40,554 nucleotides of DNA from a virus, in the UHGV virus genome UHGV-0200722. The stretch is one strand, 5' to 3'. The notes beneath the pieces were generated by a model, which had not been told where the DNA came from, ran no database searches, and saw only the letters and a program-made list of their open reading frames with translations. Positions 22,740 through 23,641 of this stretch are shown here, piece by piece (the stretch's first letter is position 1; every line of letters begins with the position of its first letter). A program made the position numbers and the translations under genes.

Positions 22740-23189
22740 GTGTTCATGCTTACTTGTTTTGATGTCGCCGACTACTTCCTGTCGCGGTGTGACGAGGATA
22801 GCGGTGACGCAATCTCTAATTTAAAATTACAAAAGCTTGTTTACTATGCTCAGGGTTTTTCATTGGCGTTGCTTGGCGAGCCTCTTTTTCAGAATAAGAT
22901 GGAAGCTTGGATGCATGGCCCTGTTGTCCCTGAGCTTTATCACCGTTATAAACAATATGGTAATGGTGCTATCCCTTCTCCAGAGTCTTTTGATGCTGAA
23001 AAATTCAGCGAAGAACAGTTAGAGCTATTAGAAGAAGTCTGGGATGTTTTTGGGCAATTTTCTGCCTGGAAACTGAGGAACATGACACACGAAGAGTCAC
23101 CATGGAGATCAAACTATATTGAGGGTGTTGGTGGTTCTGAAATTAGTTCTAAGGAGATGGCAGAGTACTTTGCAACTCGGATTAACTAA
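22740..23189 (+). CDS. Panacea-domain (DUF4065 / GepA / SocA-like) protein, putative antitoxin
   Basis: Family hallmarks ...DVADYFLSRCD...ISNLKLQKLVYYAQG...AWMHGPVVPELY...; GGAGG RBS; stop 4 nt before the next ORF. Confidence 0.75.
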   Translation: MFMLTCFDVADYFLSRCDEDSGDAISNLKLQKLVYYAQGFSLALLGEPLFQNKMEAWMHGPVVPELYHRYKQYGNGAIPSPESFDAEKFSEEQLELLEEVWDVFGQFSAWKLRNMTHEESPWRSNYIEGVGGSEISSKEMAEYFATRIN

Positions 23190-23193
23190 CGAG

Positions 23194-23613
23194 ATGGCAA
23201 GAAAATCTAAAAGGATTATCCCCCCTGCTGAATCTACAGGTAAGTTAAAGTTAGGGCCGCAGTCAGGGGGGAATTCAGATCAAAAGAAACCGAAATTTTC
23301 ATTCTGTTACATCCAAAGCTCTCACTGCATAACGAAATGCCAAAAAGATGAGAAAGCTGGCTTAGCTGATAAATTATACAGATTAAGTCAACTAACATGG
23401 GCAGATATTAAGCAGCAAGGTAGGCATAAGCTTGGATTTGAGAAGATTGCAAGGGGTGCAATTAAAGCAGGTATCCCCAGTCATATAACGGAAGACGTAG
23501 ATCATTTCTTGGCTTTTAGATTTGATGATTTGAAAGCCATGGTTGGTTATCGTCTTGGATCGACATTTTTTGTTATATGGCTTGATAGAGAGTTCAACCT
23601 ATACAAGCACTAA
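23194..23613 (+). CDS. Unrecognised 139-aa partner of the Panacea protein (candidate toxin or effector)
   Basis: Internal start MARKSKRIIPPAE... at 23194 directly after the Panacea stop; basic N-terminus, Cys/His cluster (CYIQSSHCITKC), hydrophobic C-terminal segment GSTFFVIWLDREF; followed by a strong terminator. Confidence 0.5.
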   Translation: MARKSKRIIPPAESTGKLKLGPQSGGNSDQKKPKFSFCYIQSSHCITKCQKDEKAGLADKLYRLSQLTWADIKQQGRHKLGFEKIARGAIKAGIPSHITEDVDHFLAFRFDDLKAMVGYRLGSTFFVIWLDREFNLYKH

Positions 23614-23615
23614 TA

Positions 23616-23641
23616 AAACCCACCGTCAGGTGGGTTTTTTG
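23616..23641. terminator. Bidirectional rho-independent terminator between the Panacea module and mnt
   Basis: AAACCCACC-gtcag-GTGGGTTT flanked by an A-run and a T-run. Confidence 0.8.

Follow-up and report, generated by a model that had tools for sequence, protein, structure and literature searches.

The UHGV virus genome UHGV-0200722 (40,554 nucleotides, hereafter the window) is that of a P22-like (Lederbergvirus-type) phage. Between gene 16 and mnt, in the immI accessory interval where the preliminary description had placed it, this phage carries a pair of coupled genes that is the subject of the present work (Table 1). The first gene encodes a standalone Panacea-domain protein (PanA) and the second a basic protein of 139 residues. 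Structure prediction gives this partner a fold of the RelE/ParE (BECR) superfamily, and profile comparison makes it a homologue of PB-BECR1, the RNase effector domain of NsnC from the Menshen defence system. The region as a whole is an autonomous 'moron' cassette, consisting of a leader, the two coupled genes and a terminator, set between the gene in the sieA slot and mnt. The pair is already known: the locus, the Panacea assignment, the prediction of an RNase and a direct toxicity test have all been published. The parts themselves are securely identified, and their mechanism is what we infer below.

The Panacea protein and its partner

The assignment of gene 1 to the DUF4065/Panacea family, made in the preliminary description from sequence hallmarks, was confirmed by a hidden Markov model (HMM) search, in which the protein matched PF13274 (SocA_Panacea) with E=8.1e-25 and 88.4 bits against a cut-off of 25.7. 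Its score against the NCBIfam model SocA_antitoxin was 70.4 bits, below the cut-off of 190, and gene 1 is therefore not a SocA equivalog. The 3005 homologues, mostly 143-148 residues long, are named as Panacea or SocA-family proteins, and the RefSeq name of the gene product in Escherichia coli genomes is 'Panacea domain-containing protein'. The reading frame also opens at GTG 22740, which would give 149 residues; ATG 22746 is the likelier start, because it lies 7 nt after a GGAGG sequence (22734-22738) and yields the 147 residues typical of most homologues. The protein is acidic (isoelectric point (pI) 4.6), and its AF2 model (pLDDT 94.4) consists of a single compact domain that is largely helical and includes a beta-hairpin; it has no additional N- or C-terminal domain and no DNA-binding domain, which makes it a member of the standalone 'noNTD' class of PanA. 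Foldseek found no match with E<1 for this model in the PDB, and phmmer found none for the sequence.

Gene 2 begins at an ATG separated from the TAA of gene 1 (23187-89) by a spacer of only 4 nt (23190-23193), as had been noted before. Its product is basic (pI 9.7) and starts with a basic tail of about 30 residues that is modelled with low confidence and is probably disordered; the rest is predicted to form a RelE/ParE-type domain, and its best fold matches are mRNA interferases, all of them. At the level of sequence this relationship is not visible. Pfam returned nothing relevant for gene 2 or for 68 of its homologues (no ParE_toxin, YafQ_toxin, HigB, Gp49 or the like), the family profile found only a chance match among PDB sequences (E=1.5), and an hhalign comparison of the family with an approximate E. 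coli YafQ sequence was not significant. Nor did a Foldseek search of the model against the viral structures in BFVD return anything significant. Two other readings of the protein were considered and set aside. The Cys/His cluster to which the preliminary description drew attention is not a conserved metal site, as position 49 is Cys in 46 of the 68 homologues and Leu in 20, and a zinc finger was rejected on these grounds. The C-terminal segment is indeed hydrophobic, as described, but its hydrophobic stretches correspond in the model to beta-strands of the RelE-like sheet and not to a membrane helix; with a maximal Kyte-Doolittle mean of 0.9 over 19 residues, a membrane toxin was likewise rejected.

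The partner family is large. A word index yielded 180 homologues, and an exhaustive profile search retrieved 1567 clusters at 50% identity (E≤1e-3); the best 150 of these 1567 are without exception standalone proteins, about 94-158 residues long and in most cases 130-146. Invariant in the family alignment are P33, F35, W69, G81, E83, P95, A107, R109, V117, G118 and D131, and nearly invariant are H78, R120, Y137 and the C-terminal H139. The His, Glu, two Arg, Tyr and C-terminal His among these follow each other in the same sequence order as the catalytic residues of RelE, YoeB and YafQ. Residues 31-135 of gene 2 match positions 178-279 (of 284) of the PADLOC NsnC HMM with E=4.3e-6, and the same model is matched by all 68 aligned homologues, at best with E=1.7e-10; 64 of the 68 also weakly match the NCBIfam model MAG6450_fam. 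The C-terminal region of NsnC has been described as PB-BECR1, an RNase effector of the BECR superfamily with an H-R-H triad whose nearest structure is YafQ (2025, PMC12065111), and the conserved His...Arg...His of gene 2 is compatible with that triad. By these profile matches gene 2 is homologous to the NsnC effector domain, of which it represents a standalone copy. Panacea/DUF4065 is not mentioned in the Menshen paper (PMC12065111).

Linkage, distribution and divergence of the pair

PanA and its partner were found side by side in every context examined, usually 0-10 nt apart or overlapping, so that the tight linkage proposed earlier holds well beyond this phage. Most of these contexts are accessory slots in unrelated prophages, and we count at least six unrelated types of prophage in which such slots carry the pair as recurrent cargo. 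A Panacea gene of about 145 codons lies directly 5' of even distant partner homologues, in a Solidesulfovibrio prophage, in P2-like prophages of Aeromonas, on an acidobacterial chromosome, on a cyanobacterial contig beside hsdR and on a JGI contig. Approached from the PanA side, in Serratia, Yersinia and Pseudomonas, the partner reading frame follows directly downstream, although automatic gene calling had missed it in two of the three. Closer alleles occur in Morganella, where DinI and a helix-turn-helix gene precede the pair at one end of a prophage (L022, 2053-2932), and on a siphovirus-type contig, directly before an immI module with Arc/Mnt-like, Arc and Ant genes (L020, 2055-4294). The association of the pair with immI thus recurs across phage morphotypes.

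Closer to the window, the cassette is present in the phages Emek, phiv205-1, E212 and EC.P3, and in 86 of 5426 complete E. coli genomes. Compared with the allele shared by E212 (L011) and EC.P3, protein identity is 70% for PanA and 51% for the partner and synonymous sites are saturated; this allele is an old one. The ratio of nonsynonymous to synonymous differences (pN/pS) in the same comparison is 0.25 for PanA and 0.42 for the partner, and both genes are therefore maintained by selection. Across genera, identities amount to about 60-69% for PanA versus 43-55% for the partner. By these figures PanA is consistently the more conserved protein of the two, an unusual situation that reverses the common pattern of toxin-antitoxin (TA) systems.

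Published toxicity tests and the possible function of the pair

The preliminary description regarded the second gene as an unrecognised, possibly novel protein. This can no longer be upheld, given its predicted RelE/BECR fold, its homology to NsnC and the inclusion of an identical pair in a published survey. Kurata et al. 2022 (PNAS 119:e2102212119; PMC8832971) list in Dataset S1 the pair YP_006560565.1/YP_006560566.1 of Salmonella phage vB_SemP_Emek, entered as PanA (noNTD) and pT1/T1, in the order A then T and with reciprocity 4 and 5. The DNA of Emek is 100% identical to positions 22410-23609 of the window, and the partner protein is identical too. In Table S1 of the same work the Emek toxin is predicted to be an 'mRNase' and recorded as 'not toxic' in E. 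coli, with n/a for the antitoxin; the T1 pair of E. coli MOD1 gave the same 'not toxic' result (PMC8832971). Cluster T1 heads the published list of Panacea partner clusters and is spread over many phyla. We found in the literature no later paper on this pair family and no phage-defence test of it.

One feature of these tests may, however, bear on their interpretation. The partner gene exists in databases in versions of 139, 147, 160 and 161 residues, and the first in-frame start codon would give 164. The gene overlaps recorded in the survey (-62 and -20 nt) correspond exactly to starts at 23128 and 23170 of the window. YP_006560566.1 is the translation of 23128-23613 save for its alternative first codon, and the accessions cloned for the toxicity tests are this protein, of 161 residues, and WP_077635758.1, for which a length of 147 residues is deduced. 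These forms carry 22 or 8 additional N-terminal residues ahead of the family-conserved ATG 23194; the extension in Emek, MVVLKLVLRRWQSTLQLGLTNE, is hydrophobic and basic. In the window allele the frame happens to be open upstream of the real start (23119-23193), whereas most homologues have an in-frame stop 1-8 codons upstream of the conserved ATG, which makes an N-terminal extension impossible there. The short form is used in newer PGAP records and in the annotations of E212 and EC.P3. This caveat is absent from Kurata et al. 2022 and is raised here. Together with the relationship of the partner to the Menshen effector domain and its recurrence as accessory-slot cargo, it makes a repeated test for toxicity and defence worthwhile, but these three points do not make the locus a new one.

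Comparison with characterized systems defines the pair further. It shares with the PanAT systems of Kurata et al. a Panacea domain scoring above the gathering threshold (88.4 versus 25.7 bits) and a conserved layout of two genes that are at most 100 nt apart (4 nt here), occur in at least two species and are reciprocally associated, and it belongs to cluster T1 by family and by sequence alike, the published reading frame differing only in being annotated 22 residues longer at the N-terminus. The predicted fold of gene 2 is that of the RelE/ParE mRNA interferases, but it differs from them in its basic N-terminal tail of about 30 residues, in being partnered by a Panacea protein instead of RelB, YefM, HigA or DinJ, and in being non-toxic in the published test. 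From Menshen the pair is clearly distinct: NsnC has an N-terminal inactive-PIN (inPIN) domain where gene 2 has only the tail, and Menshen has NsnA (ParB-DUF262) and NsnB (ABC ATPase) as neighbours, whereas those of gene 2 are gene 16, the 109-codon open reading frame (ORF), panA and mnt. In the absence of inPIN, NsnA and NsnB, the pair is not a Menshen system. SocAB, the type VI TA system of Caulobacter, has the same Pfam domain on the antitoxin side, yet gene 1 falls short of the SocA equivalog cut-off and gene 2, with its predicted RelE-like fold, is unrelated to SocB. SocA acts as a ClpXP adaptor, while other PanAs bind the toxin directly (PMC8832971).

The reading that we favour, tentatively, since it falls somewhat short of probable, is that PanA controls a latent RelE-fold RNase which serves the lysogen as a conditional effector of exclusion or defence. 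The acidic PanA would bind the basic partner, which translational coupling would supply in stoichiometric amount. In the lysogen the partner would then be an endoribonuclease in latent form, which probably cleaves mRNA at the ribosome as RelE, YoeB and YafQ do, with PanA as both its keeper and its sensor. On a trigger, for instance superinfection by another phage, the RNase would be set free to act and shut down translation, and the outcome would be prophage-encoded exclusion or abortive defence. A conditional effector is preferred to a self-poisoning toxin because the identical reading frame has been reported as non-toxic when expressed alone in E. coli, a natural host species of the cassette, because the effector domain is shared with a validated defence system, and because the pair is typical prophage cargo with a leader and a terminator of its own.

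Several points weigh against this proposal. The catalytic residues (H78, E83, R109, R120, Y137 and H139) are predicted from conservation and fold, and no sequence similarity to RelE, YoeB, HigB or YafQ was detectable in the Pfam, PDB-sequence and hhalign searches. The T1 member of Clostridium cadaveris was toxic, yet was not neutralised by its PanA (PMC8832971). In three of its contexts the pair sits in an unremarkable part of a chromosome, so that the family is not confined to phages. Finally, a simple scan did not find a consensus sigma-70 promoter in the leader; the same scan also overlooked the real terminator at 23615-23638, and its negatives are not to be trusted.

The TA module suggested in the preliminary description would, in its classical type II form, be an addiction module: as a RelE-like mRNase the partner would be constitutively toxic, PanA would be its labile direct antitoxin and the published lack of toxicity would be an artefact of cloning mis-annotated, N-extended reading frames. 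We consider this unlikely, although the start-codon caveat speaks in its favour: both cloned accessions begin upstream of the conserved ATG, the Emek extension is hydrophobic and basic, and the in-frame stops preclude such an extension in most homologues. The toxicity of the C. cadaveris member is in keeping with it, as are the acidic/basic nature and tight coupling of the pair, both typical of TA systems, and no housekeeping homologue of the partner came to light. On the other hand, the N-terminal 30 or so residues are probably disordered, so that an extension need not inactivate the fold, and two independent constructs were non-toxic in a species in which the cassette naturally occurs, a result that weakens the suggestion as first made. 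The higher conservation of PanA (70% versus 51%) is the opposite of what is usual for such modules, and PanA has no DNA-binding domain for autoregulation.

Less likely still is that the partner does not act as a nuclease toxin but uses its RelE/ParE fold in another way, for instance through gyrase poisoning as in ParE or as a non-catalytic, RNA- or ribosome-binding or regulatory partner of PanA, with the pair having a non-toxic function in prophage physiology. Against this stand the best fold matches, every one an mRNA interferase, the placement of the invariant or nearly invariant polar residues in the sequence order of the RelE, YoeB and YafQ catalytic residues, and the fact that the homologous domain is the sole candidate effector of the validated Menshen system. 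Very unlikely, finally, is a role in counter-defence, with the phage PanA neutralising host toxins or abortive-infection effectors as Dmd of T4 does and the partner being accessory: the family is frequent in phages and two substitutions can let Panacea neutralise non-cognate toxins (PMC8832971), but the same pair is found in non-phage chromosomal contexts, its invariable linkage to one partner family points to the partner as the target or effector of PanA, and the cassette is laid out as a lysogen-expressed moron and not as an early lytic gene.

The favoured reading of a latent, PanA-controlled RNase can be taken one step further, to a doubtful form. The Panacea/PB-BECR1 pair would then be a two-component prophage immunity system, not a classical TA system, in which Panacea senses infection and activates a RelE-fold RNase that is harmless otherwise; Menshen deploys the same effector domain, with a ParB/ABC-ATPase module as the sensor. 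In that case cluster T1 would be an unrecognised anti-phage system of wide occurrence, and Panacea would serve as a sensor domain and not as an antidote.

Leader, terminator and flanking genes

The pair ends, as first proposed, at a strong bidirectional terminator, which it shares with the convergent mnt. The hairpin has a 10-bp stem, folding energies of -15.8 (+) and -15.4 (-) kcal/mol (z -4.2 and -3.2) and U-runs on both strands; none of 200 shuffled sequences folds as well, and the annotation of phage Emek lists the same element as a rho-independent terminator.

Table 1. Features of the Panacea cassette and of its surroundings in the window
Feature	Position	Strand	Remark
gene 16	20181-22022		followed by the leftward 109-aa ORF in window order
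109-aa ORF	22042-22371	-	neighbour outside the pair; position and orientation exactly those of P22 sieA
leader	22372-22745	+	non-coding, divergent intergenic region of the cassette; 370-nt stretch before gene 1
gene 1 (panA-like)	22746-23189	+	standalone Panacea (DUF4065), 147 aa; PF13274 match
gene 2 (partner)	23194-23613	+	139 aa, ATG start; predicted RelE/BECR-fold domain, residues ~31-139
terminator hairpin	23615-23638	.	bidirectional, intrinsic; common to the pair (+) and convergent mnt (-)
mnt	23626-23877	-	immI gene next in window order after the terminator; then arc, ant, tailspike
sar antisense RNA	24130-24197	-	RF00262, 95.6 bits, E=1e-20

At the other end, homology to the remaining cassette-bearing phages begins at 22369-22372, which is the start codon of the leftward ORF. 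Emek, phiv205-1, E212 and EC.P3 share this leader at 95-100% identity, and for E212 and EC.P3 this identity over 330 nt contrasts with only about 57-68% DNA identity in the genes behind it. An ultra-conserved RNA element was considered and rejected, as the leader of a third allele (L020) diverges like coding sequence, with about 74% identity in the proximal ~180 nt as in the genes themselves. For the same reason recent recombination at the 5' edge of the cassette is the likelier and simplest explanation. Within 22000-24200, Rfam recognised only the sar RNA, outside the pair, and the leader has no Rfam family; nhmmer and blastn comparisons of the leader with the regions upstream of panA in distant homologues returned no matches.

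A promoter and operators belonging to the pair itself presumably lie in the leader. Positions 22513-22535 of the leader form a perfect inverted repeat, GAAAAGTGA-n5-TCACTTTTC, and TGCAG(G/T)AAATGTGA occurs as a direct repeat at 22552 and 22595; these repeats could be operators. Sigma-70-like promoters lie directly upstream of the panA homologues of Serratia (TTGACA-17-TAACGT with an embedded palindrome, GTGACATGTCAC; L014, ~2940-2985) and Pseudomonas (TTGACT-17-GATAAT; L018, ~2920-2960). Words resembling GTGACAT are also present in the leader of the window, and such words could be an operator motif common to this leader and the distant homologues.

The gene order in P22 is 16, sieA(-), ORF59(-), mnt(-), arc, ant, 9. 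The preliminary description had put the pair where P22 has sieA; it is correct that both lie in the same gene 16-mnt interval, but the exact equivalent of sieA is the 109-aa ORF, and the pair takes the place of ORF59. With sieA and ORF59 of P22, as with hkcC of HK620, the pair has only this interval in common, and no relationship of sequence or fold. A terminator-like hairpin at 22079-22098 (+), directly past gene 16 and within the 3' end of the leftward ORF, probably ends transcription of the late operon, in which case the pair would be a separate transcription unit. On the 3' side the sar RNA is present, so that the regulatory circuit of immI, with mnt, arc, ant and sar, appears to be intact.

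The 109-aa ORF may itself encode an exclusion or membrane protein, as its product has a hydrophobic segment at the N-terminus and a region resembling a coiled coil; Pfam gave nothing beyond sub-threshold coiled-coil matches, and the protein falls into phrog_8100 (E=1e-69), annotated as of unknown function. Other cassette-bearing phages have different genes in this slot, behind the same start and Shine-Dalgarno sequence, that of Emek being an Sf6 gp38-like gene.
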